64,000 nt of DNA from Chitinivibrionales bacterium (lineage in GTDB: Bacteria > Fibrobacterota > Chitinivibrionia > Chitinivibrionales > WJKA01): NCBI GenBank assembly GCA_038247415.1, contig JBBRUX010000005.1, positions 32,001 through 96,000 on the forward strand, in the 5' to 3' direction. A program made the position numbers and the translations under genes. How positions within the stretch are numbered: the first letter of the stretch is position 1; every line of letters begins with the position of its first letter. Shown one piece after another: positions 9,479 to 35,501 of this stretch. The notes beneath the pieces were generated by a model. It was given only the letters and a program-made list of their open reading frames with translations. It was not told the DNA's origin and did not search any database.

Positions 9479-9524
9479 GTAATACTCATCAGGCTCATTT
9501 TTTTTATAGTGCAGAAAGATTTTC

Positions 9525-10958: not shown

Positions 10959-10961
10959 GCA

Positions 10962-12436: not shown

Positions 12437-12467
12437 TTCACTTAACTCTTAAAGGTATCTTTTTTGT

Positions 12468-13846: not shown

Positions 13847-13875
13847 TTTTTTGCGCGAACAAGCATTGAAACACT

Positions 13876-13907
13876 AAAGGCCGCACCAACACATGGTAAC
13901 GGCCTTT
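13876..13907. terminator. Hairpin, probable intrinsic terminator
   Basis: aaaggccg-cacca-acaca-tggtaa-cggccttt inverted repeat downstream of the minus-strand pseudogene. Confidence 0.45.
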
Positions 13908-13940
13908 GTTAACTTATATACTTCCCAAACTTACAATCGA

Positions 13941-14709: not shown

Positions 14710-14858
14710 GCATGCTATCCTTCGTTATTGTTGATAAGAAGCATGCATTTATAATCGTTGACTAAAACAGCTCGTCGAGGCCATAAAACAATACTATTCC
14801 CCACTGGATTTCATTGCTAGCACTAACGAAGTGACAAATTGGCGAATAGTTAACAATT

Positions 14859-15870
14859 GTCGAGTAGACACGGGTATTTCAACCCAAGCCTCTCACGGAA
14901 CCGTGCTTGAAAGTCTCCCTTCACACGGCTCTTTTTGACAGACGCAACCTAATAATTAAAACCATACTCCCAATATGGAAACATCTTCGGTTCACTCTCA
15001 ATCACCCGTTTGAGCCAGCCGTAGGCTTTTCCGTAAGTATTCGTTTTGTACTTCTTCCGAGCCCATTTGACAAGATAGGTGTTTAGTCGCCAGAAAACAT
15101 TCCGCAATACTGACGGACTGTATTTCCCATAGTAGTGCAACCAGCTCCTGATCTTGGGTGATAATTCCTTCGATACATCCTTGAGGTCAATTGGCACCCA
15201 ATTCCATATCGAAAGTCTTCTCAATTAATCAAGTATCCGTTTCTGGTTCTTTCTACTTATTGCAGGGAAATATGACCAAAACAACTCGCCACCTTGCTTT
15301 TTGTAAAGCCTCGGCTTGAAGGTATACCCCAGAAAATCAAACTGCCTTGCTACCTCTTTAGGTTCTTTTTGTGACCGTATCGAACAATGACAATACACCA
15401 TCTTTGTCTTCTCTCCATTCAGCTCCAAACCGTACCCTTGCAAGTGCGTCCGTAACCGATCAAGAATAAACTCTGATTGCTCCCAACTTCGTGTATGTAT
15501 CACTATGCCATCTGCATAGCGCTCAAACACTATTCGGGGCTGTGTACTTTGAATCCACAAGTCAAATGCTTCGTGAAGGAACAGATTTGCCAACAGCGGA
15601 ATTAAAACTCCACCTTGCGGGGTACCCTTGTCCGTTTGCGCTGAGAGTCCATCAATTCCAACTCTCTTCCCGCCTCGCTTGACAAGAAACCATGCTTCCC
15701 ATACTTGTCGTTTTGTTATACTTTGCGTCTTTGCCGCTGGTTTCGTCTCTATGCCGTGTACCAATGTGACCAAAACTCAGGTTACTGTCACACTTATCCC
15801 CAAACAGATTAAGAAGTCTGGGTTTCTGATACTGTGAAATTGATTTCGACACCTCGTAAACGGTTTAATT
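14859..15870 (-). mobile_element. Group II intron remnant (bacterial class D-like) with internally deleted, stop-interrupted RT/maturase
   Basis: Minus strand has domain V GAGCCGTGTGAAGGGAGACTTTCAAGCACGGTTC and domain VI ending ...TACTCGAC at 14859. RT motifs VWEAW..VK....GIDG, GTPQGG, LANLFLH, FERYADG, FDFLGY and a domain X (WLHYYG) split by TAA at 15225. Confidence 0.9.
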
Positions 15871-15874
15871 TATT

Positions 15875-16100
15875 GGTTCTTCAGACATTTTCGGGTGATT
15901 TCTTGTTGAATAAATTATACTTTATTCTATAGAAAGACACAAAACTTTATGAAGCAGCCTTAGGCCTTGAGCATCCATGACACGTGACGTCGGTAAACTT
16001 TCAGCCAGAGGCTAGAGTTGTAGCCGTACATGTTGGGACAACAGACCTGCTTTGGGCTTGTCCTGATTGCAAGAAGCGGATGCATGGACATGTGGAAGCC
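15875..16100 (+). mobile_element. ISL3-family IS left end with transposase N-terminal pseudogene fragment
   Basis: Begins GGTTCTTCAGACATTTTCGGGTGA (ISL3-like terminus); reads KDTKLYEAALGLEHP*HVTSV...WACPDCKKRMHGH, matching the ISL3 N-terminal zinc-finger region with Trp->TGA. Confidence 0.7.
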
Positions 16101-19779: not shown

Positions 19780-20454
19780 TCAGATTTCCCCAATCATAAG
19801 CCCCTTCATCAATTGTAAATATTCTTCTCTCTTGCCATCAAAGTCGACCGGCTTTTGAAAGAACTCAAAAAACCTGCTATGGCGCAATGTCCGATAGAGA
19901 AGATTATTATCGTGCTCGGGATTACCCGTGATGAGAATGAAACGGATATTAGGACGGATTTTATGAACTTCATCGCAGAGCTCATTTCCTCGCATGCCAG
20001 GCATAACTTCATCGGTTATTACAAGTCGCACTTCTGGAGTAACTTTAATGAATTCTAAAGCTTCGAGAGGATCTAAGAATGTTTTTAAATTAAGATCTTT
20101 TGCAAACTTTCGCCTAAAAATAAAGAGATTTTGTTCCTCGTCATCAACATACAGCGCTAGGGGGTTTTCTGTGGGAGAAGGCCCTATTTTTTGTCGTATG
20201 CGGTCAAAAACGAGACCTATTGTTGCATCGTTAAATATTTGAGGCACACAATAGGGCTCTAAATCCAAGCGGCGTCCATCAAAGCGGACTTCAAGCTCAC
20301 GTGCAAATTCAGAAAACGACAAGATGTCAAAGCCATATGCCGTTAGCTTACTATCCTTGTGCAACTCGGAATCGAGCGATTTCAGGTCTTCGTAATCCCC
20401 ACAGATTGTGTCAACCGCAGATTTAATAACTTCGTAGAGGTCAGTGTCTCTCAT
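19780..20454 (-). CDS. Fusion of an ACP-like domain (no canonical Ser) and a receiver (REC) domain
   Basis: N-terminal ~90 aa has the ACP pattern (DSKL.AYGFDILSFSEFARELEVRF..TIG); C-terminal REC intact (YVDDE, ITDEVMPG, ITG, QKP). ATGA overlap with the upstream cqsA-like gene. Confidence 0.75.
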   Translation of the reverse strand: MRDTDLYEVIKSAVDTICGDYEDLKSLDSELHKDSKLTAYGFDILSFSEFARELEVRFDGRRLDLEPYCVPQIFNDATIGLVFDRIRQKIGPSPTENPLALYVDDEEQNLFIFRRKFAKDLNLKTFLDPLEALEFIKVTPEVRLVITDEVMPGMRGNELCDEVHKIRPNIRFILITGNPEHDNNLLYRTLRHSRFFEFFQKPVDFDGKREEYLQLMKGLMIGEI

Positions 20455-21641
20455 AGTGAACGCAAGCCTTTCGGAAATTGCGATGTAATATTGAGCATTT
20501 TGAGGGAATCGATAATCTGCTCTGCCATATATTCAATTTCTTCTTCTGTTATACCAAAATATATTGAAAACCGAGCCAAGCTCGTATTTTCGGGAACTGC
20601 AGGAGGTAAAAAAGCAGAAAAAAGTATTTTTCTTTTTTTAAGCTCGCTATATAATTGACACACCGATTCCACTCCTTTAAACATCAATGATACTATCTGA
20701 CATTTACTCGGACCGGTATCGACGCCTTTTTCATTGAGAAGCTTACGAAGAAGTGCTGCTCTGGCATGCATGGTTATTGCACGCTCTGGTTCGCGCATGA
20801 GAATTTCTAATGCCTTGCAATTTCCGGCAGACGTGGCAGGGGTTGGAGCAGAACTAAAAATAACCGATCGAAGCCGATAGGTTAAATAATGGGCGGTTTG
20901 GATATCTGCAATAATAAAGCCCCCATGACCGCCCAATCCCTTTGCAATACTTACCGTTCGCAAGGGAATGCGTGACGCAAGCCCTTGTTCAACAGCTAAT
21001 CCCCCACCTTTTTCTCCGCATAATCCAAATGAGTGCGCTTCGTCAACAACTAACAAACAGCCAGTTTCTTCGCATATATCCACATATTCATGCAAATTTG
21101 CAACGCTGCCGTTAGTACTATAATACGAATCGACGGCTACAATACCAGGACCAAATGTCTTGACAAATTGACGAAGAGATGCTATGTCATTATGTCGAAG
21201 GGGAATTATCCGACTTCCGGCAAAACGCGCGCCATCCCACAACGATGCATGCGCATAGATATCGAGGTACACGGGAATATCCGGGCTTGCAATTGCTTCT
21301 ATAAGCCCAACATTTGCAGTCCAGCCACAGGTAGTAAGCACAATACTTTCTGGGCCTTCTGCCTGAGCAGATTCAGCAATTTTACGCTGAAAATCGCCAT
21401 GAAAACCACTAAAACCACCATATACGACCGAGGCCATTGCACCAGAACCAGTGAGTTCGGTTGCTTTGTTACGTGCAAGCGTTACTTCTGGATGCGAAGA
21501 AAGTCTCAGGTAGTCATTATGATGACAAGCTATGAATCCGTCGCAATCTTCTGGTTGATCAAAAGGAAATGGATTGAGTGCAGCAAGGCGTCCCATTGTG
21601 GGGATCTTATGTTTTTCAAACCAAACGGGTAGCATCGCCAT
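20451..21641 (-). CDS. cqsA: CqsA/LqsA/JqsA-family alpha-hydroxyketone autoinducer synthase (PLP-dependent alpha-oxoamine synthase fold)
   Basis: NDYLRLSSHP, GWTANVGLI, VYLDIYAHASLWDGAR, RHND, GPGIVAVDSYYST.G, VDEAHS, SIAK. AHxSLWxG, GPGI and DSxYST match CqsA/LqsA as I recall them, not BioF (NHAS, VFSMDG). Confidence 0.82.
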   Translation of the reverse strand: MAMLPVWFEKHKIPTMGRLAALNPFPFDQPEDCDGFIACHHNDYLRLSSHPEVTLARNKATELTGSGAMASVVYGGFSGFHGDFQRKIAESAQAEGPESIVLTTCGWTANVGLIEAIASPDIPVYLDIYAHASLWDGARFAGSRIIPLRHNDIASLRQFVKTFGPGIVAVDSYYSTNGSVANLHEYVDICEETGCLLVVDEAHSFGLCGEKGGGLAVEQGLASRIPLRTVSIAKGLGGHGGFIIADIQTAHYLTYRLRSVIFSSAPTPATSAGNCKALEILMREPERAITMHARAALLRKLLNEKGVDTGPSKCQIVSLMFKGVESVCQLYSELKKRKILFSAFLPPAVPENTSLARFSIYFGITEEEIEYMAEQIIDSLKMLNITSQFPKGLRSL

Positions 21642-21665: not shown

Positions 21666-22826
21666 TTATACTACTTCTTGAGAAGCAATTTCATAGGCTT
21701 CTACCATGCTGGTACACCCTTGACATCCAATACATCCAGCACTATTTCCAACACCAAAGGATAACCCCCGATGGTGCATTCGTCGAGCAGCCTCCAGATA
21801 CAGCGACACGAGATCATCGAGTGAATGTTTTAGGTAGCTTGGAACCATATTTACAAGATGATTGCTATGAGGACGTACCAAAAGCAGCGTTGTTAGTACC
21901 CCAATAGATGCAAATTCGTCGATGCTTTGTAGAACTTTTTCGTACTTTTCTCCAAAGCCCAGAATACACGTGGTGTTAACAGAATTTTTACCATACGCCG
22001 CAACCGCAGCTTCCCAATTTCTTATATAGTCATCGCGGGAACAGCGCGATTTTCCTGGACAGATTTCTTTGCGAATATCTTCATCGAGGATTTCGAGAAA
22101 AATCCCCAGCGAATCTGCATACTTGGCAGTTTCGGCAATGAGTGACAAATCTTTTACCGGTTCGTGCTGTATATGAACCGAAATGTTCACACGTTCCTTA
22201 ATTTTCTTTACTAAGTCAATAAGTTCACGTACCACGACATCATTATCGGCAAATGTACCAGAAGTAATAGTAAGTGATCGCACTCCCTGTTGCGATGCCA
22301 AAGCTACTGCTTCAACGAATTTATCGATATCTTGTTTGGCTGCCCATTCGTTTATTCCTTTGCCAACCGGCTCAAGTTCACAATAGCGACATTCAAGACC
22401 ATCGGCAAAATGTTTGCATTCGTGGGCATACACCGACACGGCAGTAGCGTAACAATGCGTGCTAATACCTATTTCCATCATTGGTGTACCATCTTTAAGC
22501 GTTGCCCGTAAAAACGAAGGAATCGTTCTGCTTTTAAGCACAGCACCATTTGTTGCCGTTATAATTTTTTTAAGAGAATCATATTCCGATTGGATTGCAT
22601 ATGCCCCAAGCCAATGATCGAGGCCATATATTGGCAAACTTATCATACTCGAAAATTCATTATCCACGGCAGATCGCATATGGAAAGTTTTGCCTTGTGG
22701 ACCCGCACCAGTTCCTTTGGAAATAAAACTGCTGAGGGGAACACCATTTACGGTGGGTGGCGCAATACCCCGAGATTGGAGCTCGAGACGGCGGCGAAAC
22801 TGTGTCATTTGTGGAGAGTTTTGCAT
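21666..22826 (-). CDS. Radical SAM enzyme with CX8CX2C motif (MSMEG_0568-like)
   Basis: CKHFADGLECRYC; TITSGT; DEDIRKEICPGKS; C-terminal AGCIGCQGC. Start placed at ATG 22826 just after the FAAL stop. Confidence 0.78.
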   Translation of the reverse strand: MQNSPQMTQFRRRLELQSRGIAPPTVNGVPLSSFISKGTGAGPQGKTFHMRSAVDNEFSSMISLPIYGLDHWLGAYAIQSEYDSLKKIITATNGAVLKSRTIPSFLRATLKDGTPMMEIGISTHCYATAVSVYAHECKHFADGLECRYCELEPVGKGINEWAAKQDIDKFVEAVALASQQGVRSLTITSGTFADNDVVVRELIDLVKKIKERVNISVHIQHEPVKDLSLIAETAKYADSLGIFLEILDEDIRKEICPGKSRCSRDDYIRNWEAAVAAYGKNSVNTTCILGFGEKYEKVLQSIDEFASIGVLTTLLLVRPHSNHLVNMVPSYLKHSLDDLVSLYLEAARRMHHRGLSFGVGNSAGCIGCQGCTSMVEAYEIASQEVV

Positions 22827-22842
22827 TTTAAAATTCTTTATA

Positions 22843-24501
22843 TCATTTAAAAAGCGTAAGTGAATTGTTAATAAGTCTTTCTTTGATAACTTTACGACGT
22901 TTTTTTCCACTCGATGTCTTCTCGATACTCCCTTTTCCGCAAAAGTAAACATGCGTTAACAAAAGTGCAAAAGATCTGAATATTAAATCCTGAATTTCTT
23001 TACGACGTGCCACTGCATCCGCCGATTCGAGCGGTTTTGTTTCGATAAGCGCATGAAGCTCTGCAACACCCGTTTGAGCATTCTCTAGAGAAAGCACAAC
23101 AGTGCATCCACTGCGAACATTTTCCAAACTTTCGATACACTGCTCGATATCGTCTGGAACAATGTTGCGCCCGCCAATAATAATAAGATCGTCTTTACGG
23201 GAGTGGAAAAAAAGTTCTCCATCATAGGTAAATCCGATATCGTTAGTGCACAGCCAGCCATTTTTAAGTGCCTTTTGAGTCGCCTCCGGATTTTTTAAAT
23301 AACCGGATGTTAAACAAGGGCCTTTTACAAAAATCTCCCCTAAGGCTAAATCTGGCAAAACTTCACCCGCAGTGCTTCGAACTTCAAGCAAAGTACCCTT
23401 AAATGGTTCTCCTATAGAAACAATTTCTAGAGATTCCTTGTCGGATTCATCCGAGAGCGACAGCTTTTCAGATTCGTCTACCCTAACGCGTAGAACCGTT
23501 GCCCCGTCGCTTCGTTTGGTTGAAGTTGCGCCAAGCGCATTTTCGGCCATGCCATAGCCCACGTGAATATGGCGCGATTGCAATTTGTGTTTTGACAACA
23601 AATCTATTGCACGCCGTAAAACAATACCCGTTACTTTTTCTGCACCAAAATACAAATCGAGCCGACTCAAATCGAGAGTGTCTGCCGTGGAATGTCCTAA
23701 AAGCTTAATAGTATGGGCCATTGCCGCGTTGGTTGTAAAATTAAGTCCTGTTTTATGCTCAGCCAACAGCTTAAACCACCTAAGGGGGTTCATCATATAC
23801 CAACGAGGCGAAACAAGAATATTGTCAACACCCTTATATAAAGGAAGCAGAATCCCAATAAAAAGGCCCATGTCATGATTAAAGGGAAGCCAGGATGCAC
23901 AGTGTTTAAGCTCTATCCCCGATGCCAGCGTGTATTCGAACCCAAGCACATCTACTTGGTTTAAAACCATTTGATGAGTCACAATAACACCTTTAGGAAT
24001 TCCCGTGCTTCCCGAAGAATATTGAATAACTGCATACTCACTAGGCGATACGGCAACACGTTCCAGAAAAGGTTTTCCTGTATGTTCTTGCAAATCCTTG
24101 AGCGATATGGCCTGTTTACCGGTGAGCGTACACCATGCTGCGGCCATGGCTTTATCGTCGGCTGTTTCACAAATAATAGTTGCAAATGCGCAACTATGTT
24201 CCACTCTGCCAAGATACTGTTCATAATCTTCGGATAACCCCATTACGGGTCTTAGAGGCACAGCTACTGCACCTAAACGCCAAACAGCTAAAATAATCGT
24301 AACATATTCATGACGATTAGTTAGCAATATACCCACGGTGGATGATTTCCCAACGCCTATTTCTGCAAGGGCGGTAGCATACAAACCAGAAGATTCCCAA
24401 AGATTTGAAAGTTTAAATTCACTTTTCTCTTCTGGAAATTTCCAAACAGGATCATATTTCTGTATGTTTTTTTCTACACTAGCAAGCAATGTATCTTCCA
24501 T
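22843..24501 (-). CDS. Fatty acyl-AMP ligase (FAAL)
   Basis: QYSSGSTGIPKG, SWLPFNHDMGL, FGAE, GYGMAE followed by a FAAL-type insertion, RKDDLIIIGGRN, KTSSGK; RBS AGGA before ATG 24501. Confidence 0.88.
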   Translation of the reverse strand: MEDTLLASVEKNIQKYDPVWKFPEEKSEFKLSNLWESSGLYATALAEIGVGKSSTVGILLTNRHEYVTIILAVWRLGAVAVPLRPVMGLSEDYEQYLGRVEHSCAFATIICETADDKAMAAAWCTLTGKQAISLKDLQEHTGKPFLERVAVSPSEYAVIQYSSGSTGIPKGVIVTHQMVLNQVDVLGFEYTLASGIELKHCASWLPFNHDMGLFIGILLPLYKGVDNILVSPRWYMMNPLRWFKLLAEHKTGLNFTTNAAMAHTIKLLGHSTADTLDLSRLDLYFGAEKVTGIVLRRAIDLLSKHKLQSRHIHVGYGMAENALGATSTKRSDGATVLRVRVDESEKLSLSDESDKESLEIVSIGEPFKGTLLEVRSTAGEVLPDLALGEIFVKGPCLTSGYLKNPEATQKALKNGWLCTNDIGFTYDGELFFHSRKDDLIIIGGRNIVPDDIEQCIESLENVRSGCTVVLSLENAQTGVAELHALIETKPLESADAVARRKEIQDLIFRSFALLLTHVYFCGKGSIEKTSSGKKRRKVIKERLINNSLTLFK

Positions 24502-24520
24502 GTAATTCCTTGGTAAATAT

Positions 24521-24769
24521 CTATGTATGAGCTGCGATAAATGTAGCCAGATCATTTAGTGTCCGTAGTTCCTTAATTACTGTAGCATTAGGAATCGCAA
24601 GCTTGAACTTTTCTTCTACGAGTGCTTGAAGCTGCATAAGCGTCATAGAATCAATCATACAATCTTCAATAAGATCTTTTCCTACAACATCCTTAGCTGG
24701 CTGGTCAAAGAGGTGGTGTTCATCACATAAATTAACAAGTGAGGTGAGTATCTGATCTTTATTTGCCAT
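24521..24769 (-). CDS. Acyl carrier protein
   Basis: 82 aa acidic protein with IDSM phosphopantetheine Ser, VEEKF, TLNDL; RBS GGAG; first gene of the operon. Confidence 0.88.
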   Translation of the reverse strand: MANKDQILTSLVNLCDEHHLFDQPAKDVVGKDLIEDCMIDSMTLMQLQALVEEKFKLAIPNATVIKELRTLNDLATFIAAHT

Positions 24770-24849: not shown

Positions 24850-24878
24850 ATTATACGGGTTTTTGTTTTTTGAGTCAA
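24850..24878 (-). promoter_or_regulatory. sigma70 promoter of the ACP-FAAL-rSAM-cqsA operon
   Basis: Minus strand TTGACT-17 bp-TATAAT, about 80 bp upstream of the ACP start. Confidence 0.75.
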
Positions 24879-25000: not shown

Positions 25001-26674
25001 TCAATTATCTTCTGGTTCGACCCGGCGAGCACTTGCATACCGCGCAGTGGCTTCTACCGAGGATGTTTCTGAAATCTGTCGCAAGCGGGCTAGTGCTGCA
25101 GGATGTTCGATATTGTACCAGTCGCGTGGCATTAGATCGCTGCTAAAATCATGACAACCTTCAACCATATCAAGGCCGCGTGGAACAACGTCCGGATTAT
25201 TGAGCACTTGCCGACATCGATGCGCATACAGATACACAATAGCATCCATAAGCTTTCCGGGCTTGTGTTTATGCGAAGGCATTTTTTCGAGAAGCTGCTC
25301 AAACAAGCGTGATGCGTTTGCCATGGTTCCCTCATTGAAATACGCATAAATTCCTTGACGTATAGAATCACGGGTTTCGTCTTTGTATGCTACAACTTCA
25401 CGTGCCTGATGTCCGTAAATTTCAAATACCTCAAATTTTTTATGGTATCCCTTAACGCGCAAAATATCAACCATACGAGAATGCTGATCATCCTGAAGAT
25501 CATCCATGACTTCCTGACTCACCACTATTTCTAATCCATACAGTTTTGCTACCGATTCTAGCCGGGAACACACATTGACTGCAGTACCAATCCAAGTACG
25601 ATCATATTTTTTTTCGGAGCCAATATTCGCTTCCAACACAGAACCTTTGGCAATGGCAATTACATTGGCCATTTTAGGCATGCCAGCTATCACAAGTTGC
25701 TTGTTGTAAATTTGCAAACTTTGTCGCATGAGCAGCGCAGCCTCTACCGCTGTTTTACCATCGGGGAAAATTGCCATCACGGCATCACCCATCAGTTTAT
25801 CAACCTCGCCTCCAGCCGAAAACACTGGGTCAATCATCATTTCAAAATATTTATTAAGAAATTGAGCCTGCACATCTGGGTCGGTCATCGATTCGGTAAG
25901 TGGCGTAAAATTTCTCATATCGCAAATGAGAATAGCTTTATCGCTCATGCGAGGCTTAAATTGACGAGGATCTCGGCCTTGATTAACTTCATTAACAACC
26001 GAGGGTCTTACAAACGTTGAAATAATAGCATTGCGAGCAACGAGTTCAGAATTTTTATGTTCAAGCACCAGTTGTCTACGCAGGGCATCTTCGGCTCGTA
26101 GGCGCTCTTTTGTGGTATCCAGCGAAATAACATAAAAGATGTCAAGCGCAAGCTTTATCATGGCAATAACCATAGATGAAAGCCATGCAATTGCGAATGC
26201 TCCTACCATATTGGAGAGCGTGGATACAGCAGATCCTGTTTGTATAAGGTAACTCGCTGCCGCGCAGATAAGGCCAAGAGGAAAAGCAACTACCGAAAAA
26301 TAAACTTTAGAAGAAGTAAATCCATACACAAAACCTGCCCACATCAGCGAGGCATACCAATACTGGTTCATATTGTTATGCATCATGAGGTTTGCAAATA
26401 CAAACGGGAACATAAAAACAAGCGCTGCTTCCCAATACACTTTATGCCATGTTTGAAATGGAGAGTTTTTGGGAAAAAATACGAAAGGGATAGTGATCGC
26501 AACAATAATCAACCGGAGCAACAAATCTTCGTGATAGCCCAGATAAAATTTACAAATCAGATAAAAGAGCATGTTTGAGAGCGGAGCAATTACACCCATA
26601 AAGAAGGCAAACTTCTCGGTAGTATAAAATTTGGGAGAGCGGGTGATCCCAATGGCAGTTTTAAGATAATCCAT
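25001..26674 (-). CDS. Membrane adenylate cyclase (class III) with a CqsS/LqsS-like 6-TM sensor domain
   Basis: Six hydrophobic segments with YHEDLLLR and FPFVFANLMMHN...WYAS; coiled coil; cyclase motifs ICDMRNFT, VDKLMGDAVM, YDRTWIGTAVNVCSRLES. Start placed at ATG 26674. Confidence 0.82.
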   Translation of the reverse strand: MDYLKTAIGITRSPKFYTTEKFAFFMGVIAPLSNMLFYLICKFYLGYHEDLLLRLIIVAITIPFVFFPKNSPFQTWHKVYWEAALVFMFPFVFANLMMHNNMNQYWYASLMWAGFVYGFTSSKVYFSVVAFPLGLICAAASYLIQTGSAVSTLSNMVGAFAIAWLSSMVIAMIKLALDIFYVISLDTTKERLRAEDALRRQLVLEHKNSELVARNAIISTFVRPSVVNEVNQGRDPRQFKPRMSDKAILICDMRNFTPLTESMTDPDVQAQFLNKYFEMMIDPVFSAGGEVDKLMGDAVMAIFPDGKTAVEAALLMRQSLQIYNKQLVIAGMPKMANVIAIAKGSVLEANIGSEKKYDRTWIGTAVNVCSRLESVAKLYGLEIVVSQEVMDDLQDDQHSRMVDILRVKGYHKKFEVFEIYGHQAREVVAYKDETRDSIRQGIYAYFNEGTMANASRLFEQLLEKMPSHKHKPGKLMDAIVYLYAHRCRQVLNNPDVVPRGLDMVEGCHDFSSDLMPRDWYNIEHPAALARLRQISETSSVEATARYASARRVEPEDN

Positions 26675-26747
26675 AAATTTTGCACTCTGATTGAAAGCGC
26701 ATCTCTCTTTTCCTACATACCTATTATTTTGGTACTTATTGTAACTT

Positions 26748-26776
26748 ATTTTATCACATCGGGTTGAATAGCGCAA
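26748..26776 (-). promoter_or_regulatory. Putative sigma70 promoter of the sensor-cyclase gene
   Basis: Minus strand TTGCGC-17 bp-TAAAAT. Confidence 0.5.
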
Positions 26777-26833
26777 GAGAGCAAACAAGTATTGTCGATT
26801 TTTCTTTGAATGCTTGCCTAGATAGATCCTACC

Positions 26834-28027
26834 ATGATAAACTTTGATACTATGAACTCAGAAACCATCCTTGATTTATTTGATGTTGAACCAATAAACG
26901 AAAAACGCATATCTGAACGTGCATTTCTTACCGTTGCGGTCACCCTTGAAATTGGGGATCGGCTTGTACGCGGCGTCGAATGCAAAAACGTCAGTCTTGG
27001 CGGTATGTTCCTAATTTCGAAGGTTCATATTCCCCTTGGAAGCGTTGGAACAGTTACTCTTACAAAACGCTGCGATAAAAAAAGAGTGAGCTTTTCTGCC
27101 GATTTTGAAGTCGTACGTCACGAAGGAGAAACAAAAGAAGATATTGGGCTTGGCCTTAAATTTATTCGACTTACCGATGAAGATAGACTTGCAGTCGAAT
27201 TCATTGTTGATTTCCGCACGGGTGTAACCCTTCGGGAACGATTAGATTTGTCGGAAGAGAAAATTTCGGACATCCGCTTTAAAATTGCGCAAACCCAAGA
27301 AGAACTAGCTGGAGCATTTTCACTTGTTCACGATTCCTATGTAACGCGAGGTTACATGGATCCCGACCCAAGCGGTATGCGCTTGAGCATCCACCACGCC
27401 ATGCCTCTAACAACAGTTGTTATTGGCGTTCAAAACAATCGAGTTATTGCTGCTTCGGCACTTTTTTTAGACTCCCCCATTGGCTTGCCCATGGACAATC
27501 TTTACAAGAGAGAGCTTTCTGAATTTCGCCAAAACAGGCGACTCATAGCAGAAATTGGGGCATTTGCCGTTCACCAAGATTTGCGAGCATTTACAACAAC
27601 ACTCGTGCTGCATCTTCAAAAGCTGATGTTTTTATACACCTTTAGATACCTGAATCTCGATGATATTGTTTTGGTAATAAACCCGCGACACAAGCTTTAT
27701 TATCAACATGTCTTATTAGCCAACCAAATTGGGCCCGAGCGCGTTTACCAAAAGGTAAAAGGAAATCCGGCCATTGCCATGTCGATGGATGTTCGCAAAG
27801 CACAAGATCGTTTTAAAGAAAGCTATTCTACCCTACCCGACAATAAAAACTTGCATCGCTTTTTTTACGAACATACAAGCGAATGCCTACAAATGCCTGA
27901 ACTTCGTCAGCCTATTGTCACGTGGAATCGCGCATTGCTGCATTATTTTTTCGAAGAACGGTCGAAACTTTTCGAGACAACAAGCGCCGATACCATAAAA
28001 TTTATTCTTAGCCATTACGAGAATTAA
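26834..28027 (+). CDS. PilZ domain fused to an N-acyl amino acid synthase (FeeM/NAS GNAT-fold)
   Basis: PilZ: RISER (RxxxR) and NVSLGG. NAS: FKIA...AFSLVHDSY..RGY, DSPIGLP.D, AEIGAFA, INPRHKLYY, PAIAM. Confidence 0.78.
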   Translation: MINFDTMNSETILDLFDVEPINEKRISERAFLTVAVTLEIGDRLVRGVECKNVSLGGMFLISKVHIPLGSVGTVTLTKRCDKKRVSFSADFEVVRHEGETKEDIGLGLKFIRLTDEDRLAVEFIVDFRTGVTLRERLDLSEEKISDIRFKIAQTQEELAGAFSLVHDSYVTRGYMDPDPSGMRLSIHHAMPLTTVVIGVQNNRVIAASALFLDSPIGLPMDNLYKRELSEFRQNRRLIAEIGAFAVHQDLRAFTTTLVLHLQKLMFLYTFRYLNLDDIVLVINPRHKLYYQHVLLANQIGPERVYQKVKGNPAIAMSMDVRKAQDRFKESYSTLPDNKNLHRFFYEHTSECLQMPELRQPIVTWNRALLHYFFEERSKLFETTSADTIKFILSHYEN

Positions 28028-28028
28028 T

Positions 28029-28811
28029 ATGTCAACTGCAACAAGTGCTGGTTACGTTTCTGCCGACTATCTCAAAGCACTTGCGCAGGCAGCAGAACCC
28101 ATAAAAAAGCGCATACGAGATTTGCTTGCGCTAGGCTCCAACTCAAAAATTCTTGATGCGGGCTGTGGTCCTGGCACCGATACTATTCCTTTAGCACGTT
28201 TACTGAATAATTCGGGCATAATTTGTGGCATGGATGCCGATAGATCTATGATTCAAGCCGCGCAAACCCGCATACAAGTAGAATGGTTCCAAAATCTTTA
28301 TCATTATGTCGCTAACGCCACTGCAATTCCTTGCAAAACCAACAGTTTTGATGCAGCATTTTGTGATCGGGTATTACAACACATTAAAGATGCTCATAAC
28401 GCAGTCGCCGAAATGTGTCGTATAGTAAAGCCTGGTGGGAAAATTGTACTTGTCGATTCAGATCATTCCTCACTGAGCATTTCGACAAATAATTCATCAA
28501 CAGAATGTGCATTGCGAACCTGGAGAACTCAAAGATTACACAATGGCCTCGCTGCTCGTAATCTTGGCACCTATGCAATTAAAGCAGGGCTATTACTAGA
28601 AAGTATAGAGTGCATCCCTTTTCTATCTCGCAGCTATGCAGGATTTAGGCTCGGAACAGCTGCAGATCTTGTTGAGCAAGAAGCCGTTACACGAGGGATT
28701 ATATCGTCCGATCAATTAGATTCATATAAATCTGACCTGGAAGATCTCGATCGCGCCAATGCATTTTATTCTGTAATTCCTATGATAATACTCTCAGCAA
28801 CTAAACCGTAA
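28029..28811 (+). CDS. Class I SAM-dependent methyltransferase (UbiE-like)
   Basis: ILDAGCGPG, GMDAD, NATAIP...SFDA, DRVLQH, RIVKPGG. Confidence 0.88.
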   Translation: MSTATSAGYVSADYLKALAQAAEPIKKRIRDLLALGSNSKILDAGCGPGTDTIPLARLLNNSGIICGMDADRSMIQAAQTRIQVEWFQNLYHYVANATAIPCKTNSFDAAFCDRVLQHIKDAHNAVAEMCRIVKPGGKIVLVDSDHSSLSISTNNSSTECALRTWRTQRLHNGLAARNLGTYAIKAGLLLESIECIPFLSRSYAGFRLGTAADLVEQEAVTRGIISSDQLDSYKSDLEDLDRANAFYSVIPMIILSATKP

Positions 28812-29332: not shown

Positions 29333-31616
29333 ATGAATGATGCAAACCTTCGTGGTACCACCGTGGCTCCTGAATTGGAATGGCATAGCAATCCGATGTT
29401 GCGCAATGTGTCAAAACGCATTGTTCAGCCCATGATCAGATATCTTGACGCTGAATTTGGTACTACCATTACGAATCAAATTATTGCCGAAAGTGATCAT
29501 GATCGTGATTTTTTTGAAGATGTTTATGGATTTATGCCCATTGAAACCACCGAGAAAATGTTTGCGAGTGCAATCCGCATAACTGATAACCCCGACTTCG
29601 CCTACAAAATGGGAAAAGAAATCTGGAAATACACTCCAACAATTCAAGCCCTTCTTGGAATAACCGTAGCTACCCCTTCTTTGCTTTTTGAGAATATGAA
29701 CAACATCGAAGGAAAAGCCGTACGTACAACAATAGTTGACACTCAAAAATTTGGGGCTTCCAAATATAGGCTTAGCATTAGCTTTAGGGGCGGCTTTGTG
29801 GAACCAGCCAATGCATGCCGTAATAGGCATGGAACCTACGAATCGGCCACACAAATGTTCGGTTTACCACCATCCAAAGTTGAGCACCCCCAGTGCCGAT
29901 TTAGAGGCGACGATCACTGCGTGTACGATATTACCGTCCCTGAACAATCATTTTTTATTTATCAAAAAATTTCGTTTATAATTGGCTTTTTGGGTTTGGT
30001 AGGCTTTGGTCTCTTTGCACTTTTGCACTCCCCTATTCTTGCAATAGTTGGAAGTCTTTGCATCCCGTTAGCGCTCGGTTCGTACCTCTTTTTCTTGAGA
30101 TCGCGCCTTACCGCAAATTTACGGTGGATTGCAAATGCAAAGCATTCAATTGAGGAGAATAGCAAAGATGTTTTAACTGAAATGAATCGCACGAAACATT
30201 TGCATGAGCTTACAAGCAACCTCAATAGCTGCTTATCTCCCCTATCTGTCGCGAAAGCAGCAACACATTCCCTTACCCACGATTTCAATTACGGCTCTGG
30301 GCAAGTTTGGCTTCTTAAAGACGACGACTCCCTTATGTGTACAGCAACATCTGGGTTAGCACAAAATCTTGAAGCCTCGGTGAAAAGTATTTCGTATTCC
30401 ATATCCGAGGGAATGAATCGCCCCGAAAGCTTTATTGCACATGTTATAGGCCGTAAAGAAATTCTCCTCATTAATGATGTTAAGACAAGTACACAAACCT
30501 TCATTGCACCCACTCAAGATTTGCTCCAATTGATCAATCCATCATCCTTTATTATTGTGCCGACTGCTTTGCTTTATTATTGTGCCGATTCTCGAAAAAA
30601 ACAAAGCAGTCGGCATGATCATTGGCGCAAACCATGAGGCTGGTGTTCAAGTAAAATATCTGGATCGTGTTATTTTCGAAGCACTTACGCTTGTCGTTTC
30701 AACAACATTGGCAAAGGCCAAAGTCTTTGAAAGCATGGAACGAAAACTCGAAAAAAGAAAGCAACTCTTGCGCGATCGTCAAGATGAATTGCTTATAGCC
30801 CGAAAGATATCAATTCAAAACGAAAAGGTCTCTGCGCTGGGGGAAATGGCCGCAGGCGTTGCGCACGAGATTAACAATCCGCTTAATTTCCTTGTTAATA
30901 TAGTAAGCGAGCTCGAACGAGACACAAAAGGGTTGCATGAAATAGCTGCACTCGGTAACACGTTTGCACCACAAAACATTCGCCATGAAATCGATAAAAT
31001 CTTTGTCGATTACAACCTTGCCGAGCGCATCACTGAATCGGACTATGTTTACACGCTCATCCGACAATCTCTTGCCCGTGCACAGAAAACGGTGAGTAGT
31101 CTGCGCATTTTTGCGCGCCAAGCCGGTAACGATGGAGTAAAACCCGAACCATTGTGCGAATTGATTCGTAGTGCATTCGAGATTATTCCACAAAAATATC
31201 GAGCAGATGTAACCCTTACGTGCGAGCTTGGTTCAGAGTGCGCGGTGCATGTTAATCGTATAGAATTCTCTCAGATAATTATTAATATCCTTACCAATTC
31301 CATAGAAGCCATGAATGGCAAAGGATCAATAAAAATTGACTTAGAAGAAACAAATCGATCTCATCTGGTTTCAATTTCAGATACTGGTTGCGGGGTTCCT
31401 CCCGAAAATAGAGCACTTATTTTTAAAGCCTTTTTTACCACACAAAATAAAGAACAGCATACCGGCTTAGGGCTTACGGTTGCGCTGGAACTTTCTCATA
31501 AAAATGGCGGTACTATCGAACTCGCACAAAAGCAACCCACTCTGGGAGCATGCTTTATAATTACTATACCTAAACCGTTCAAACCTTCGGCAGAGCTGGA
31601 TGCCCATGCCGCTTAA
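29333..31616 (+). pseudogene. V4R-like sensor-2TM-GAF-histidine kinase, frameshifted by a 25-nt insertion
   Basis: First ORF has V4R-type ACRN..G...HPQCRFRGDDHCVY, TM helices and the start of a GAF domain; second ORF has the GAF end, H-box AHEINNPL and N/G boxes. Deleting 25 nt at a 17-bp duplication gives one 752-aa ORF. Confidence 0.78.
30547..30588 (+). repeat. 17-bp direct repeat (ctttattattgtgccga x2, 8-nt spacer)
   Basis: Copies at 30547-30563 and 30572-30588 coincide with the kinase frameshift. Confidence 0.9.
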
Positions 31617-33312
31617 AAAAGGATTGCTTAAAAAAATTGCTGCATCAACTGCTATTATACTGGCTTTGATAATTATTTGCATATCCATTTTCTCTCATCT
31701 GACGTTGTGGTGGGGAACAGCCGAATTCTTTTTATGTATTGGCTTATTTATTATTATCTTCGATTGGCATGATCGTAGTTCGCTTCTCATGAAACAAAGC
31801 AATGCTAAAACAATCGAATTAGAACAAACTCATAATAGCCTCGTTCGTGCCAATGAGCACATTGTTGCCCTTCATGGTTTTTCTCAACAAATAACCGGAT
31901 GTGAAACTATACAATCGGTCTGCCACACCGTTACAACCGCACTTGTAAATAGTTTTTCATACGATGCGAGTATTTTTTGGCTCTGGGATAACACTCACAA
32001 CAAGCTTATGGCAATTTCTGCGGCAGGCAATATCCCTGCTCTAATAGACCTTCCTGATACGCTTACCCAACATGATGGCCTCTTGGAATCAGTGATGCGC
32101 TCAAAGCAAACCGTGCTCATTCGACGTCGCGAAGAAAAATCAAACGATAAAAATAACGAAAAAATAAAACTTCTCGAAAGCGTTGGTCTCTATTCTGTTG
32201 TGGTAACCCCGCTCATGCACGAAAACGAGATTCTTGGGGTTCTCTTGGCAGGTTTTCAGGAAATTCAAAGTATGGATACTCACGATGCAAAGGTCATCGA
32301 ATCGTTGCTCAACACAGCATCGGATCGTATGGCTAAAGGCCAGCTCGAGCTACTTGACGAAAAAGAAGAATCCGTTTTCAATTCGGTCTCTAACCTTGCA
32401 GGTAATGCCCTTGCGCGAGTAATCATGTTTTCGAGCATGGAAGCTCAAATTGAAAAGCGTGCCAAAGAGCTAACCTTAACCCACGAAAAACTTGCTCAAA
32501 CACGAGAAATAATCATTCAGGTCGAGAAGCTTTCATCTCTTGGGAAAATGGCTGCGGGCGTTATTCACGAAATCAACGACCCACTCAATTTTCTTGTTAA
32601 TATTTTGCCCGATCTTAAGCGCGACTTCGAGGGGCTCACACACATCAAAACGTTGCTGCTCACCCCAGACTGCCCTGCGGATTTAAAACAGAAAGTTCAA
32701 AACATTGTTGACGAGTACGAACTCGAATCTCATTTGGAAGAGCTGGACTTTATTTTTTCTCGAGCATCCGATGCACTAGGCAAAAGCTCTCGCATTGCTT
32801 CCGGGTTGCAGGTCTTTTCCCAAGGCGGCAAATCGGTGTCGAAATCATCAGATCTTATTGCGCTGGTTACCCAAACGCTCGAGCTTATTCCTCGCAAAAC
32901 CAAAGGGGATATCGCCATACATCTCGATCCTGCTTCCGAAATACTATGGGAAGTAAACCCCGATAGATTTTCCCAGGTTTGCATGAATCTCATTATCAAT
33001 GCACTAGATGCCATGAATGGGCAAGGCACATTAACCATTGCTGGAACATCTTCTGGTACACAGGCCCACATAAGCTTTTCAGATGATGGACCAGGCATTC
33101 CCCTAGCCATCCAGAAAAAAATCTTCGATCCCTTTTTCACAACAAAGCCTGCCGGAAAAAGTACGGGACTTGGGCTTACTATCTGCGCTGAAATCGTGCG
33201 TGATTATGGTGGCCGATTTGAAATCGATTCTGCACCCGGTACAGGAACCCGTTTCACCATATATTTCTCAGAAGAACAGCGCACAGCATTTAATCTGGCG
33301 CTTCCCGTATAA
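31600..33312 (+). CDS. Membrane sensor histidine kinase (2TM-GAF-HisKA-HATPase)
   Basis: IHEINDPL H-box, NLIINALDA, DDGPGI, FDPFFTTK, GTGLGL-type G2 box; paralogous to the upstream kinase. Confidence 0.9.
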   Translation: MPMPLKKGLLKKIAASTAIILALIIICISIFSHLTLWWGTAEFFLCIGLFIIIFDWHDRSSLLMKQSNAKTIELEQTHNSLVRANEHIVALHGFSQQITGCETIQSVCHTVTTALVNSFSYDASIFWLWDNTHNKLMAISAAGNIPALIDLPDTLTQHDGLLESVMRSKQTVLIRRREEKSNDKNNEKIKLLESVGLYSVVVTPLMHENEILGVLLAGFQEIQSMDTHDAKVIESLLNTASDRMAKGQLELLDEKEESVFNSVSNLAGNALARVIMFSSMEAQIEKRAKELTLTHEKLAQTREIIIQVEKLSSLGKMAAGVIHEINDPLNFLVNILPDLKRDFEGLTHIKTLLLTPDCPADLKQKVQNIVDEYELESHLEELDFIFSRASDALGKSSRIASGLQVFSQGGKSVSKSSDLIALVTQTLELIPRKTKGDIAIHLDPASEILWEVNPDRFSQVCMNLIINALDAMNGQGTLTIAGTSSGTQAHISFSDDGPGIPLAIQKKIFDPFFTTKPAGKSTGLGLTICAEIVRDYGGRFEIDSAPGTGTRFTIYFSEEQRTAFNLALPV

Positions 33313-33509: not shown

Positions 33510-33734
33510 ATGAACGCCCTTAAAAAAAAGCTTATTAAACGTGCAACACAAGCGTACAAACACATTTATCCCTGTACCAACAAACGATCTCTCTACGAAT
33601 GTTTTACCTCCGAAGGAGAGCGACTGCTTTTCTGGTTTAATACCGCTGATAATAATACGCATCTTCTTATAGGAGATATGAAACCTGTCCAACAATTTGC
33701 ACGTCAAGCTTATCACTCTTCCACGTACACGTAG
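33510..33734 (+). CDS. Small hypothetical protein
   Basis: 74 aa; strong RBS AGGAGG; preceded by a sigma54-like promoter. Confidence 0.65.
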   Translation: MNALKKKLIKRATQAYKHIYPCTNKRSLYECFTSEGERLLFWFNTADNNTHLLIGDMKPVQQFARQAYHSSTYT

Positions 33735-33765
33735 CCGATTGTATGGTTGGATGTATTTTTCTTGC

Positions 33766-34944
33766 ATGAATCAAAAAACGATTTCTTCCATTGATATTTT
33801 TTCTCACGTTATCGATAATTTTGGTGATGCAGGTGTCGCACTACGATTAGCCAGTGAGCTCTCGTACCGGATAGCACATCACCCTATCCGCTTATTTACC
33901 GATGCATACGAACTCACCAACCGACTTCTTGGCGAAACATGTATTTGCGTAAACAACGCAGGTGCAAATTTGAGCATTCACCCTTGGACTTCTACCACGT
34001 GCTGGAACGACCTCACGCCAGCAGATTTGATTATTGAAACGTTTGGGTGCGACATTCCCACTGAGTACCTAAAAAAAGCCTATGTGCGTGGCGGGGTCTG
34101 GTTTAACCTCGAATATCTTTCGGCAGAAAGCTGGATAGAAGAGTGCCACCTTGGAGAATCGCTGCTGGATTCTGGCTCATTGCGAAAATTCTTTTTTATG
34201 CCAGGATTTACAAAAGCAACAGGAGGGCTCATTACCCGTGCGATAAAACTGACTTCACCACACACCGCTGTGCCCAATGCAGCTCGGGCAGTGCGCACTT
34301 TCGCCCAATCGTATGGATATACGCCAACCGAACCAGAATTCATTGGTTTCCTCTTTTGTTATGACTTTGAACATGCTTCCTTTTTTGATGCATTAGTAAA
34401 TTACCCGACACGCATTCTACTTATTGCCTGCGGAGATCAAGCTCATGAAGCAGTAAAAAACAACATGAAACAAGGAGTGAGGGAAACGAATTTTCTCATT
34501 CACGAAAAAAACCTAACGGTGCTTCTTGCGCCTTTTGTAAATCAAGCTTCATTCGATACGCTCATTGCAGGCTCAGATTTTGCACTTATCCGTGGAGAAG
34601 ATTCTCTTGCACAAGCAGTTCTTGCCCACGTCCCTTGTATCTGGGATATTTACAAACAAGAGCGATCGGTACATACTAAAAAGCTTATTGCATTTCTCGA
34701 CCGAATAAAGCCGTTTTTTGCAGACCAACTCATTTTTACTGGGTACCAAGAACTCATGCACCAGTATAACAGCGATAGCGATCTTACTACCACTCTGCAA
34801 TGGATCTGGTTTTTAAATAACCTGAGCCCGCTCAAACAATCCGCAGTCGAGTTTGCGAGCTACCTCAATAAAAATTGCAATCTATGCGATCAAATGCTAT
34901 TTTATGCGACTCAATTTTTAAACCAGTCAAGGGAGCATTCATGA
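33766..34944 (+). CDS. earP: EF-P arginine rhamnosyltransferase
   Basis: DIFSHVIDNFGDAGVALRLA, IETFGC, NLEYLSAESW, FFMPGF...TGGL, IRGEDS, WDIY.Q; overlaps efp. Confidence 0.92.
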   Translation: MNQKTISSIDIFSHVIDNFGDAGVALRLASELSYRIAHHPIRLFTDAYELTNRLLGETCICVNNAGANLSIHPWTSTTCWNDLTPADLIIETFGCDIPTEYLKKAYVRGGVWFNLEYLSAESWIEECHLGESLLDSGSLRKFFFMPGFTKATGGLITRAIKLTSPHTAVPNAARAVRTFAQSYGYTPTEPEFIGFLFCYDFEHASFFDALVNYPTRILLIACGDQAHEAVKNNMKQGVRETNFLIHEKNLTVLLAPFVNQASFDTLIAGSDFALIRGEDSLAQAVLAHVPCIWDIYKQERSVHTKKLIAFLDRIKPFFADQLIFTGYQELMHQYNSDSDLTTTLQWIWFLNNLSPLKQSAVEFASYLNKNCNLCDQMLFYATQFLNQSREHS

Positions 34945-35501
34945 GAGAAGCAGGCGATCTCAGACAAGGTAATGTGGTAAAAGTGGGCAACGATTTACTC
35001 CTCGTTGTGAAATCTATCTATAACGCTGGTGGTCGCAATGCTGCTACGGTTAAAATGAAGCTTAAAAATTTGGCCTCCAATGCCGTTACAGAAAATGTGT
35101 ATCGTGCCACCGATAAGTTCGATAACATTATGCTCGATAAAAAAACCATGGCCTATTTGTATGGATCCAATGATTTTTATACCTTCATGGATCAAAACTC
35201 CTTTGAGCAGATCGATCTTACCAAAGAAGTTTTAGGCGATGCTCTCAACTATATCAAAGAGCAGATGGAAATCGATATTGTTTTCTACGGTGATAAGCCC
35301 GTTTCCATAGAACTCCCTACAAACGTAGATATGGAAATTACCTACACCGAACCCGCAACTAAAGGCGACACCTCTGGCAAAGTGTTTAAAGCAGCCACCA
35401 TTGAAACTGGATTTGAAGTTCAGGTTCCTCTCTATTGTATGATTGGCGAAAAAATTCGCATCGATACGAGAAATGGTGAATTTGTAGAGCGCGTTAAATA
35501 A
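34941..35501 (+). CDS. efp: Elongation factor P (Arg32 type)
   Basis: 186 aa from ATG 34941; GGR32NAA loop; TEPATKGDT, ETG..VQVPL, DTR.GE. Confidence 0.96.
   Translation: MREAGDLRQGNVVKVGNDLLLVVKSIYNAGGRNAATVKMKLKNLASNAVTENVYRATDKFDNIMLDKKTMAYLYGSNDFYTFMDQNSFEQIDLTKEVLGDALNYIKEQMEIDIVFYGDKPVSIELPTNVDMEITYTEPATKGDTSGKVFKAATIETGFEVQVPLYCMIGEKIRIDTRNGEFVERVK

Follow-up and report, generated by a model that had tools for sequence, protein, structure and literature searches.

A gene on the minus strand of the window, the 64,000-nucleotide stretch of contig JBBRUX010000005.1 analysed here, encodes a 557-amino-acid (aa) protein, P0001, that joins a natural membrane receptor-type domain to an intact cyclase domain. 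The window comes from a Chitinivibrionales bacterium of the phylum Fibrobacterota, whose genome assembly amounts to 3.84 Mb in 99 contigs and is 96% complete. The architecture of P0001, the homology of its input domain, its active-site residues and its linkage to neighbouring genes were established by computation. An earlier note had described the gene as a ligand-binding domain of the CqsS/LqsS type wired to a class III adenylate cyclase; its observation was confirmed, and its interpretation is supported as far as sequence analysis goes. We lean slightly towards the view that P0001 is a homodimeric membrane receptor-cyclase serving as a lipid-signal-gated source of cyclic AMP (cAMP), with a ligand supplied by a neighbouring alpha-oxoamine synthase (AOS) pathway; gating, the identity of the ligand, the direction of the response, dimerisation and the downstream readers are what we infer in this scheme.

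The membrane and catalytic domains of P0001

The open reading frame (ORF) extends over positions 25001..26788 of the minus strand, and translation from the ATG at 26674 yields the 557-aa product. The 38 codons upstream of this ATG are probably untranslated, since in the orthologue alignments the N-termini of the homologues begin at that codon. All of the strings quoted in the earlier note occur in the translation: FYLICKFYLGYHEDLLLR at aa 37-54, FMFPFVFANLMMHNNMNQYWYASLM at aa 87-111, CDMR at 251-254, DKLM at 292-295, GDA at 296-298, DRT at 358-360 and NVCSR at 367-371. The gene and its parts, with the evidence used to delimit each of them, are as follows.

25001..26674, minus strand: receptor-cyclase gene for P0001, 557 aa, stop codon included (ORF and translation; start fits homologue N-termini)
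26120..26674, minus strand: CqsS/LqsS-like six-helix membrane domain, aa 1-185 (hydropathy, invariant columns, hhalign, hmmsearch, reverse profile)
25940..26119, minus strand: cytosolic helical linker after transmembrane helix (TM) 6 with conserved pre-catalytic segment RNAIISTFVRPSVVNEVNQG, aa 186-245 (block invariant in orthologues, aligning with the helix/handle region that precedes the OaPAC catalytic domain)
25400..25939, minus strand: predicted class IIIb adenylate cyclase catalytic domain, aa 246-425 (PF00211, PDB alignments, residue positions, invariance in orthologues)
25004..25399, minus strand: conserved C-terminal helical domain with motif EGCHDF, aa 426-557 (kept in orthologues; no Pfam family)

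By hydropathy, six segments joined by short loops occupy the region from aa 22 to aa 182, and the basic residues present at the N-terminus and in the even loops fit a topology with both ends inside. A profile (A1) was made from P0001 and 13 short relatives of its N-terminal domain, 14 sequences in all; R54, N100 and W106 are invariant in this alignment and E82, F93, Y105 and S109 nearly so. Sequences of CqsS were obtained through a tblastn search of a plasmid collection with the CqsA-like protein encoded in the window (see below), which returned Vibrio second chromosomes deposited there as plasmids, together with records from Cupriavidus, Ralstonia, Streptomyces and Tistrella. The cqsA homologue of V. 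campbellii scores 696.7 bits for NF005526 (cut-off 428). The convergent neighbour of this gene encodes a 690-aa protein with HisKA, HATPase_c and receiver domains, and no Pfam family over its N-terminus; synteny with cqsA together with this architecture identify it as CqsS.

The likeness of the N-terminal domain of P0001 to CqsS is more than chance by profile comparison. In a direct BLASTP comparison with V. campbellii CqsS the similarity is weak (24% over 86 aa, E 0.003). Alignment of A1 to the same protein by hhalign, a comparison that the earlier note had proposed, gave a probability of 96.9% and an E-value of 1.8e-10, with aa 16-122 matching CqsS 17-125 in register. The note had drawn its parallel with segments of V. 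cholerae CqsS; an in-register likeness beyond chance stands for V. campbellii CqsS, and it is only with this protein that the V. cholerae strings given in the note were compared. A hidden Markov model (HMM) built from A1 and applied to every ORF of 100 aa or more in six cqsA-homologue loci matched four proteins alone, each of them the sensor adjoining the synthase (E-values at Z=1e6: Cupriavidus, 6.9e-18; Ralstonia, 2.3e-16; V. campbellii, 1e-13; Vibrio sp., 1.5e-11); the Streptomyces and Tistrella loci gave no match. Those cqsA genes of the six loci that were tested exceed the NCBI curated threshold (696.7 and 580.5 bits vs 428). Conversely, a profile of the four cqsA-adjacent sensors, run against all 5,443 window-genome ORFs that are 100 aa or longer, gave a single match, the P0001 gene (E 1.8e-4). 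Ralstonia eutropha is listed among the bacteria with lqsA-lqsS clusters in a 2012 review (PMC3376566). On these comparisons the membrane domain and the receptor domain of CqsS/LqsS are homologous, P0001 being a distant relative and not a CqsS orthologue, since the tryptophan that bonds CAI-1 in CqsS is replaced in it (see below).

The outcome that the earlier note had named as speaking against its reading, a better match of this domain to a generic MASE-type or other cyclase anchor than to CqsS, was not seen. No MASE family was matched in Pfam by the whole of P0001 (E up to 10) or by aa 1-195 (E up to 1). No PDB chain was matched by A1 at E up to 1, in a set that holds full-length Rv1625c/Cya (7yzi/7yzk) and evidently not the CqsS cryo-EM chains; no similarity of the MASE or Rv1625c type was thus detected. 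A language-model look-up in the ESM Atlas, on which we do not rely, returned unnamed clusters first, with MASE6, MASE2, MASE11, MASE8 and MASE7 lower down, at ranks 10-27 (score 0.93-0.94). Within the class (Chitinivibrionia) 10 of 81 genomes carry the A1 domain, and cyclase-level matches to the whole of P0001 were obtained in 34 of 41 searched genomes, which argues that A1 is not a general cyclase anchor. The window genome has no A1 match besides the P0001 gene, and its two further class III cyclases both lack the six-helix domain. Word-indexed searches with aa 1-200, or with A1 on longer proteins, returned only P0001 itself and two relatives; looking up the clusters of ten relatives yielded no informative names, and a metagenome scan with the orthologue alignment found distant cyclases only.

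The output domain was examined in the same manner. Guanylate_cyc (PF00211) is the sole Pfam family in P0001 (aa 244-417, 33.7 bits vs a cut-off of 21.9). HisKA and HATPase_c are absent from P0001 in Pfam searches at E up to 10, and both were seen in V. campbellii CqsS, run as a control. The remark that a cyclase stands where an H-box and HATPase domain would follow is borne out by these searches. No NCBIfam model matched P0001. Among proteins of solved structure, P0001 comes closest to two photoactivated cyclases, OaPAC (E 1.7e-24, aa 212-425) and bPAC (E 6.4e-19). In the OaPAC alignment D252, K293 and D297 lie opposite OaPAC D156, K196 and D200, and the block DRTWIGTAVNVCSRLE lies opposite DYTILGDAVNVAARLE (DRT..NVCSR vs DYT..NVAAR), which places T360, N367 and R371. 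All six residues are invariant in five orthologues. In class III cyclases two aspartates bind metal, an Asn/Arg pair stabilises the transition state and the base is specified by a further pair, a Lys/Thr combination being the mark of class IIIb adenylate cyclases. The complete catalytic set claimed in the earlier note (D252/D297 for metal, K293/T360 for adenine, N367/R371 for the transition state) was thus located both in the sequence and in the OaPAC alignment. Because these six residues are present and invariant, with the Lys/Thr pair among them, the cyclase looks catalytically complete and ATP-specific. The linker at aa 186-245 may correspond to what is called a cyclase transducer element. 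The C-terminal domain matches no Pfam family.

The candidate ligand-binding site

In the cryo-EM structure of V. harveyi CqsS (PMC13729885, 2026) a pair of CAI-1 molecules occupies that half of the dimer which lies in the outer leaflet, each molecule being held by TM1-4 of one protomer together with TM6 of the other. CAI-1's head group is hydrogen-bonded to Trp33, Arg47 and Ser103; its tail contacts Phe26, Tyr29, Leu83, Phe86 and Phe87, as well as Phe158, Phe162 and Phe166 of the partner protomer. Trp33 is essential for CAI-1 sensing, and binding of the ligand shifts TM6, breaking its run into the cytosolic helix (PMC13729885). Head-group preference is determined by W104 and S107 in V. cholerae CqsS, the V. 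harveyi numbering being shifted by 5 at C170/F175 (PMC3376566). The corresponding positions of P0001 were read from a 31-row alignment comprising P0001, 26 relatives and the four cqsA-adjacent sensors.

R54 of P0001: Arg47 of V. harveyi CqsS; 31/31 rows
S109: Ser103 (V. cholerae S107); 26/31 rows
W106: the selectivity Trp (V. cholerae W104); 30/31 rows
F93: Phe87 of V. harveyi CqsS; 30/31 rows
F37: Tyr29 of V. harveyi CqsS; conservation not counted
C41: Trp33 of V. harveyi CqsS; Trp only in the four cqsA-adjacent kinases
N34: Phe26 of V. harveyi CqsS; His in 20 rows

W106 and S109 align with the W104/S107 pair both here and in the profile alignment to V. campbellii CqsS, as had been proposed for the W-x-x-S motif. 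R54, N100 (conserved in 30/31 rows), W106 and S109 are predicted to lie at the outer-leaflet ends of TM2, TM3 and TM4. By this alignment the polar core of the CAI-1 site is a signature of the whole domain family. Since one head-group contact differs, Trp33 giving way to Cys41, the ligand of P0001 would be related to, and not identical with, CAI-1.

To assess the breadth of this family, 1.84 billion representative proteins were searched by HMMER with aa 1-195, giving 75 relatives at E up to 0.001, 32 of them at E up to 1e-10. By Pfam their outputs are histidine kinases (27), class III cyclases (14), GGDEF domains (8), SpoIIE (3), and one each of Ser/Thr kinase, Hpt only and TPR only; 20, many of them fragments, showed nothing. 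Judged by these attachments, the six-helix domain is a modular sensor joined to varied outputs, for which Pfam has no model. The idea of an output swap on a quorum-sensing module holds insofar as a cyclase replaces the kinase; it does not hold as a single swap, given the range of outputs just listed, from histidine kinases and cyclases to GGDEF, SpoIIE and a Ser/Thr kinase. Four metagenome relatives (P0007, P0025, P0033 and P0052) carry the same six-helix domain on class IIIa catalytic domains, the closest solved relatives of P0007 being mammalian AC8, AC5 and AC9, then Rv1625c. At one locus (L062, G068 contig C15) three tandem minus-strand genes, 10942-12633, 12738-14207 and 14527-15897, carry the domain on bodies other than cyclases; one encodes a 563-aa protein in which no Pfam family was found, one a HisKA-receiver protein and one a kinase. 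In G061 and G062 (L064, L065) it is joined to LytS-type kinases beside LytTR regulators.

These data bear on the possibility that the six helices are a mere anchor or dimerisation device, with the activity set elsewhere, for instance by the C-terminal domain. Most bacterial cyclase anchors have no demonstrated ligand (PMC12414865), and the C-terminal domain of P0001 is conserved and unexplained. Against this, R54, N100, W106 and S109, polar residues within the membrane, are close to invariant among relatives that carry five output types, positions of the R54, W106 and S109 type coincide with CAI-1 contact and selectivity sites in CqsS (PMC13729885; PMC3376566), and the recurrent pairing with AOS genes described below is unexpected of a plain anchor. 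We consider a plain anchor very unlikely.

Neighbouring genes and the possible origin of the ligand

Downstream of the receptor-cyclase gene, on the same strand, lies a set of biosynthetic and signalling genes.

24850..24878, minus strand: sigma-70-like promoter match TTGACT-17-TATAAT, 11/12 (consensus match only; regional count not above shuffles)
24521..24769, minus strand: acyl carrier protein (ACP; Pfam PP-binding)
22843..24555, minus strand: fatty acyl-AMP/ACP ligase (Pfam AMP-binding; NCBIfam fatty acyl-AMP ligase subfamilies)
21666..22952, minus strand: radical SAM enzyme, closest to the MSMEG_0568 family (Pfam, NCBIfam)
20451..21641, minus strand: CqsA-like AOS (PDB, NCBIfam, tree)
19780..20454, minus strand: 224-aa protein with C-terminal receiver domain (Pfam Response_reg), with a 4-nt overlap between its start and the stop of the synthase gene

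The CqsA-like gene is 3.4 kb downstream of the cyclase gene. The best PDB match of its product is the CAI-1 autoinducer synthase CqsA (E 1.2e-51), followed by serine palmitoyltransferase (8e-44). In a quick maximum-likelihood tree of 38 proteins, rooted at the midpoint only, the window enzyme falls into one clade (99) with three relatives from Chitinivibrionia, and a branch with SH-aLRT 97 sets this clade and six cqsA-context proteins apart from 28 other AOS of the class. The pairing of synthase and receiver genes is repeated at three other loci. From these assignments, the neighbouring genes probably make a lipid signal. The window genome has a second CqsA-like synthase (L066, contig C17, 9407-10615, minus strand), 52% identical to that of the window, with an adjoining receiver-domain protein gene (8746-9483, minus strand); its surroundings hold flavodoxin/ferredoxin-type and amine-oxidase-type genes, and no membrane sensor is nearby.

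On the other side of the receptor-cyclase gene, a divergent group of genes is found.

26834..28027, plus strand: PilZ-FeeM fusion, an N-acyl amino acid synthase with a domain of the cyclic di-GMP (c-di-GMP) receptor type (Pfam)
28029..28811, plus strand: S-adenosylmethionine-dependent methyltransferase (Pfam), also following PilZ-FeeM in G047 and G049
29333..31616, plus strand: sensor histidine kinase split into two ORFs by a 25-nt tandem duplication
31600..33312, plus strand: GAF-domain sensor histidine kinase (Pfam GAF_2 and HATPase_c)

A small ORF lies between the methyltransferase and the two sensor kinases. The split kinase consists of overlapping ORFs of 434 and 353 aa, the repeat copies lying at 30547-30563 and 30572-30588; a 733-aa orthologue from genome G048 aligns with the first ORF to residue 400 and with the second from residue 397. 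This reflects either real gene decay or an assembly artefact.

The conservation of these neighbourhoods was examined at two levels. A scan of genome contigs found five loci, two of them close: those of a Chitinispirillum sp. metagenome-assembled genome (MAG; 47% identity over aa 1-545) and of a Chitinispirillaceae bacterium MAG, Fibrobacterota. Within the class, four complete orthologues are 47-48% identical, and a fifth copy (G035) is missing the first ~118 codons. The set comprising ACP, ligase, radical SAM, CqsA-like, receiver and two-kinase genes is adjacent to the receptor-cyclase gene only in the window genome (G000) and in G048.

At the level of the phylum, A1 matched 31 of 296 genomes, a tally that includes one match in G253. 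Outside the class 37 places were listed and the regions of 23 examined, the 14 left out being short contigs, weak matches of family f18, and G253. By HMM scoring, the 23 loci hold 26 domain-bearing genes, every one of them (26/26) with a cyclase domain; an HMM of the C-terminal part of P0001 matches 24/26 of these Fibrobacterota receptor-cyclases, those of L113 and L116 giving no match. An AOS gene lies within 400 bp of nine of the 26 (eight divergent, one tandem) and at 2.1-8.3 kb of six more, three of which are tandem paralogues sharing their neighbour's AOS; G261 has one further divergent pair by coordinates, unscored since the gene runs off its contig. A tight pair from another family is that of G262 (L114), with the cyclase at 9189-10763 and the synthase at 7886-9061. 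The AOS-linked cases span six genera and four families. In NCBIfam CqsA is the best-scoring assignment for three of the adjacent AOS genes (290-305 bits), a serine palmitoyltransferase/BioF-like one for four (338-357 bits, below cut-off) and PRK07505 for one. Five whole genomes carry two or three AOS genes each; five of the total of 11 lie beside a receptor-cyclase and the rest are BioF-like. The survey of cyclase and synthase neighbourhoods called for in the earlier note thus revealed a recurrent pairing. Judged from gene order, this pairing is, even allowing for the relatedness of the genomes, the cqsA-cqsS layout for making and sensing a signal, a cyclase having taken the place of the kinase. 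P0001 is one member of an undescribed Fibrobacterota family of receptor-cyclases, and the finding generalises also to class IIIa versions in metagenomes such as P0007. That the members of this family are natural receptor-cyclases in which a CqsS-type domain directly drives cAMP synthesis, each paired with the AOS that makes its ligand, is a proposition we regard as evenly balanced. Up to four receptor-cyclase copies per genome were encountered in the phylum search, and at L105, L107 and L108 (G257, G251 and G249) two or three tandem paralogues stand beside one AOS gene.

The most constant neighbour of the receptor-cyclase in the class is PilZ-FeeM and not the CqsA-like gene. In all four complete class loci (G000, G048, G047 and G049) the PilZ-FeeM gene is divergent from the cyclase gene at a distance of 46-158 bp; the methyltransferase gene follows it in three. 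This invariable association suggests control by c-di-GMP of a lipid-signal synthase, and it gives rise to the main rival explanation, which retains the architecture and mechanism of P0001: the ligand would be an N-acyl amino acid, possibly its methyl ester, that PilZ-FeeM and the methyltransferase produce, its synthesis being under the control of c-di-GMP via PilZ. The two genes are present in G047 and G049, where no AOS is near, and the ACP and acyl-AMP ligase could equally supply a FeeM-type enzyme, FeeM-type synthases using acyl-ACP. Set against this, none of 20 loci from other Fibrobacterota families matches PilZ-FeeM, while AOS recurs there, and those relatives of the receptor domain whose ligands are known take up signals of the ketone type and not N-acyl amino acids. 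On balance this origin of the ligand seems unlikely, if the least so of the alternatives. Other copies of PilZ-FeeM were found at L060:18762-19982, L061:10967-12142 and L063:11571-12746.

P0001 might also sense a membrane lipid made by the cell itself, or a lipid intermediate, for example a long-chain amino-ketone or a sphingoid base, and so act as a feedback regulator of lipid synthesis instead of a cell-to-cell receptor. The four adjacent AOS genes of other families that score best as serine palmitoyltransferase-like would fit this role, as would the location of the binding site of this fold within the bilayer, where apo-CqsS has lipid-like densities (PMC13729885). The window AOS, however, groups with the cqsA-context proteins, the cluster includes tailoring enzymes along with a receiver protein and two sensor kinases, as is typical of signalling loci, and a separate housekeeping BioF-like AOS is kept in each of the five genomes checked. 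We hold feedback regulation to be improbable, a shade more so than the N-acyl amino acid route.

Several observations weigh against a receptor-cyclase gated by the product of the neighbouring AOS pathway. The match of the reverse profile to P0001 is weak (19.5 bits), the residue equivalent to Trp33 is Cys41 and covariation of the pocket residues with the kind of adjacent AOS was looked for and none was seen. The window AOS scores best with NF005526, at 294.7 bits, under the equivalog cut-off of 428. The 231-bp gap between the cyclase and ACP genes contains the promoter-like match, so the two genes need not be co-transcribed. Two of the four complete class orthologues, those of G047 and G049, have no AOS in the flanks examined, and G047 carries a kinase-kinase-receiver-ligase-CqsA-like set on another contig. 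In the phylum-wide set 11 of 26 receptor-cyclases have no AOS in the flanks examined, the adjacent AOS are of at least three kinds (CqsA-like, serine palmitoyltransferase/BioF-like and PRK07505) and, the surveyed genomes being related, the counts are not of independent events.

Proposed mechanism and relation to known systems

In the mechanism we favour, P0001 would dimerise, as class III cyclases do, the homodimer having two shared active sites. The ACP, fatty acyl-AMP ligase, radical SAM enzyme and CqsA-like AOS would make a lipophilic signal of the amino- or hydroxy-ketone type, which would bind in the outer leaflet among TM1-4 and TM6 of the partner protomer, at the level of R54, N100, W106 and S109. 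Binding would move TM6, as in CqsS, and the movement would pass through the following helix (aa ~183-215) and the invariant segment RNAIISTFVRPS (aa 214-225) to the catalytic dimer. Because TM6 continues into the cytosolic helix and the conserved pre-catalytic segment, such a movement would be expected to reset the catalytic dimer and thereby change cAMP synthesis. The cAMP would presumably be read by the proteins of the genome that bind cyclic nucleotide monophosphates (cNMP), and possibly by the GAF kinases next door. Ten cNMP_binding matches were found in the window genome, with none among the 41 further ORFs of the window; a role of the adjacent GAF kinases or receiver protein as cAMP readers is speculation.

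The feasibility of a CqsS-gated cyclase is indicated by an engineered chimera, CqsS-Rv1625c, which 10 uM CAI-1 stimulated 4.8-fold (PMC4821796, Beltz et al. 2016). A second chimera, CqsS-AC2, was inhibited by CAI-1 (PMC4821796; PMC12414865). Since the two respond in opposite directions, the sign of the response of P0001 is not predictable. In these chimeras, as in P0001, a six-helix domain of the CqsS type precedes a class III cyclase, and the membrane ligand regulates the enzyme directly (PMC4821796; Seth et al., bioRxiv 10.1101/694877). They differ in being laboratory-built, of class IIIa and fitted with a Vibrio receptor, whereas P0001 is natural, is assigned to class IIIb and has a divergent receptor with candidate synthase genes of its own. 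The 2016 study clustered CqsS-type modules (56) apart from cyclase anchors (PMC4821796).

With CqsS of Vibrio and LqsS of Legionella, which has relatives in Cupriavidus and Ralstonia, P0001 shares a detectably homologous six-helix, short-loop N-terminal domain, the Arg of TM2, the Asn at the end of TM3, the Trp-x-x-Ser of TM4 and an AOS gene nearby. Its output, in contrast, is a predicted class IIIb cyclase with an extra C-terminal domain in place of DHp/CA domains with or without a receiver, and its host belongs to the Fibrobacterota and not to the Pseudomonadota. From CqsS it further differs by the Cys at the Trp33 position, an identity of only 24% over 86 aa and a synthase under the CqsA equivalog threshold. 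OaPAC and bPAC, which have the closest solved catalytic domains, resemble P0001 in the pre-catalytic helical segment and in the class IIIb Lys/Thr signature; their input is a soluble BLUF light sensor, that of P0001 a membrane domain. Rv1625c/Cya and the mammalian membrane adenylate cyclases likewise combine a six-helix anchor, a helical transducer and a class III catalytic domain. The Rv1625c/Cya anchor, however, is not detectably related to that of P0001 in the PDB comparison above, and its catalytic domain is of class IIIa.

The role of six-helix membrane domains in class III adenylate cyclases is a long-standing open question. In the parts available of a 2025 review, only synthetic CqsS chimeras are cited as proof of concept for a receptor role of these domains (PMC12414865), and a search of the full-text literature outside subscription-only titles found no description of a natural CqsS-type receptor-cyclase, only the synthetic chimeras, and no paper connecting CqsA with Fibrobacter. 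P0001 appears to be nature's version of the chimera design, together with candidate genes for ligand synthesis; as a defined gene pair the two can be expressed and the ligand sought. The result would also define a modular sensor domain of the membrane for which Pfam has as yet no model. Should the proposal be correct, P0001 would be the first natural six-helix adenylate cyclase anchor with a genome-predictable ligand, CqsA/CqsS-type signalling would extend beyond the Pseudomonadota with cAMP added as an output, and the circuit, whether quorum-sensing-like or responding to another lipid signal, would bypass the phosphorelay.

Three other features of the window were recorded. On the plus strand at 58378-59271, a ribose-5-phosphate isomerase B (LacAB_rpiB) carries a C-terminal PilZ fusion. 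Two short adjoining ORFs at 14949-15773 on the minus strand have reverse-transcriptase and group II intron maturase domains and look like remnants of a group II intron protein. Finally, a gene for the EarP rhamnosyltransferase directly precedes that for elongation factor P at 33697-35501 on the plus strand, where the listed ORFs overlap.

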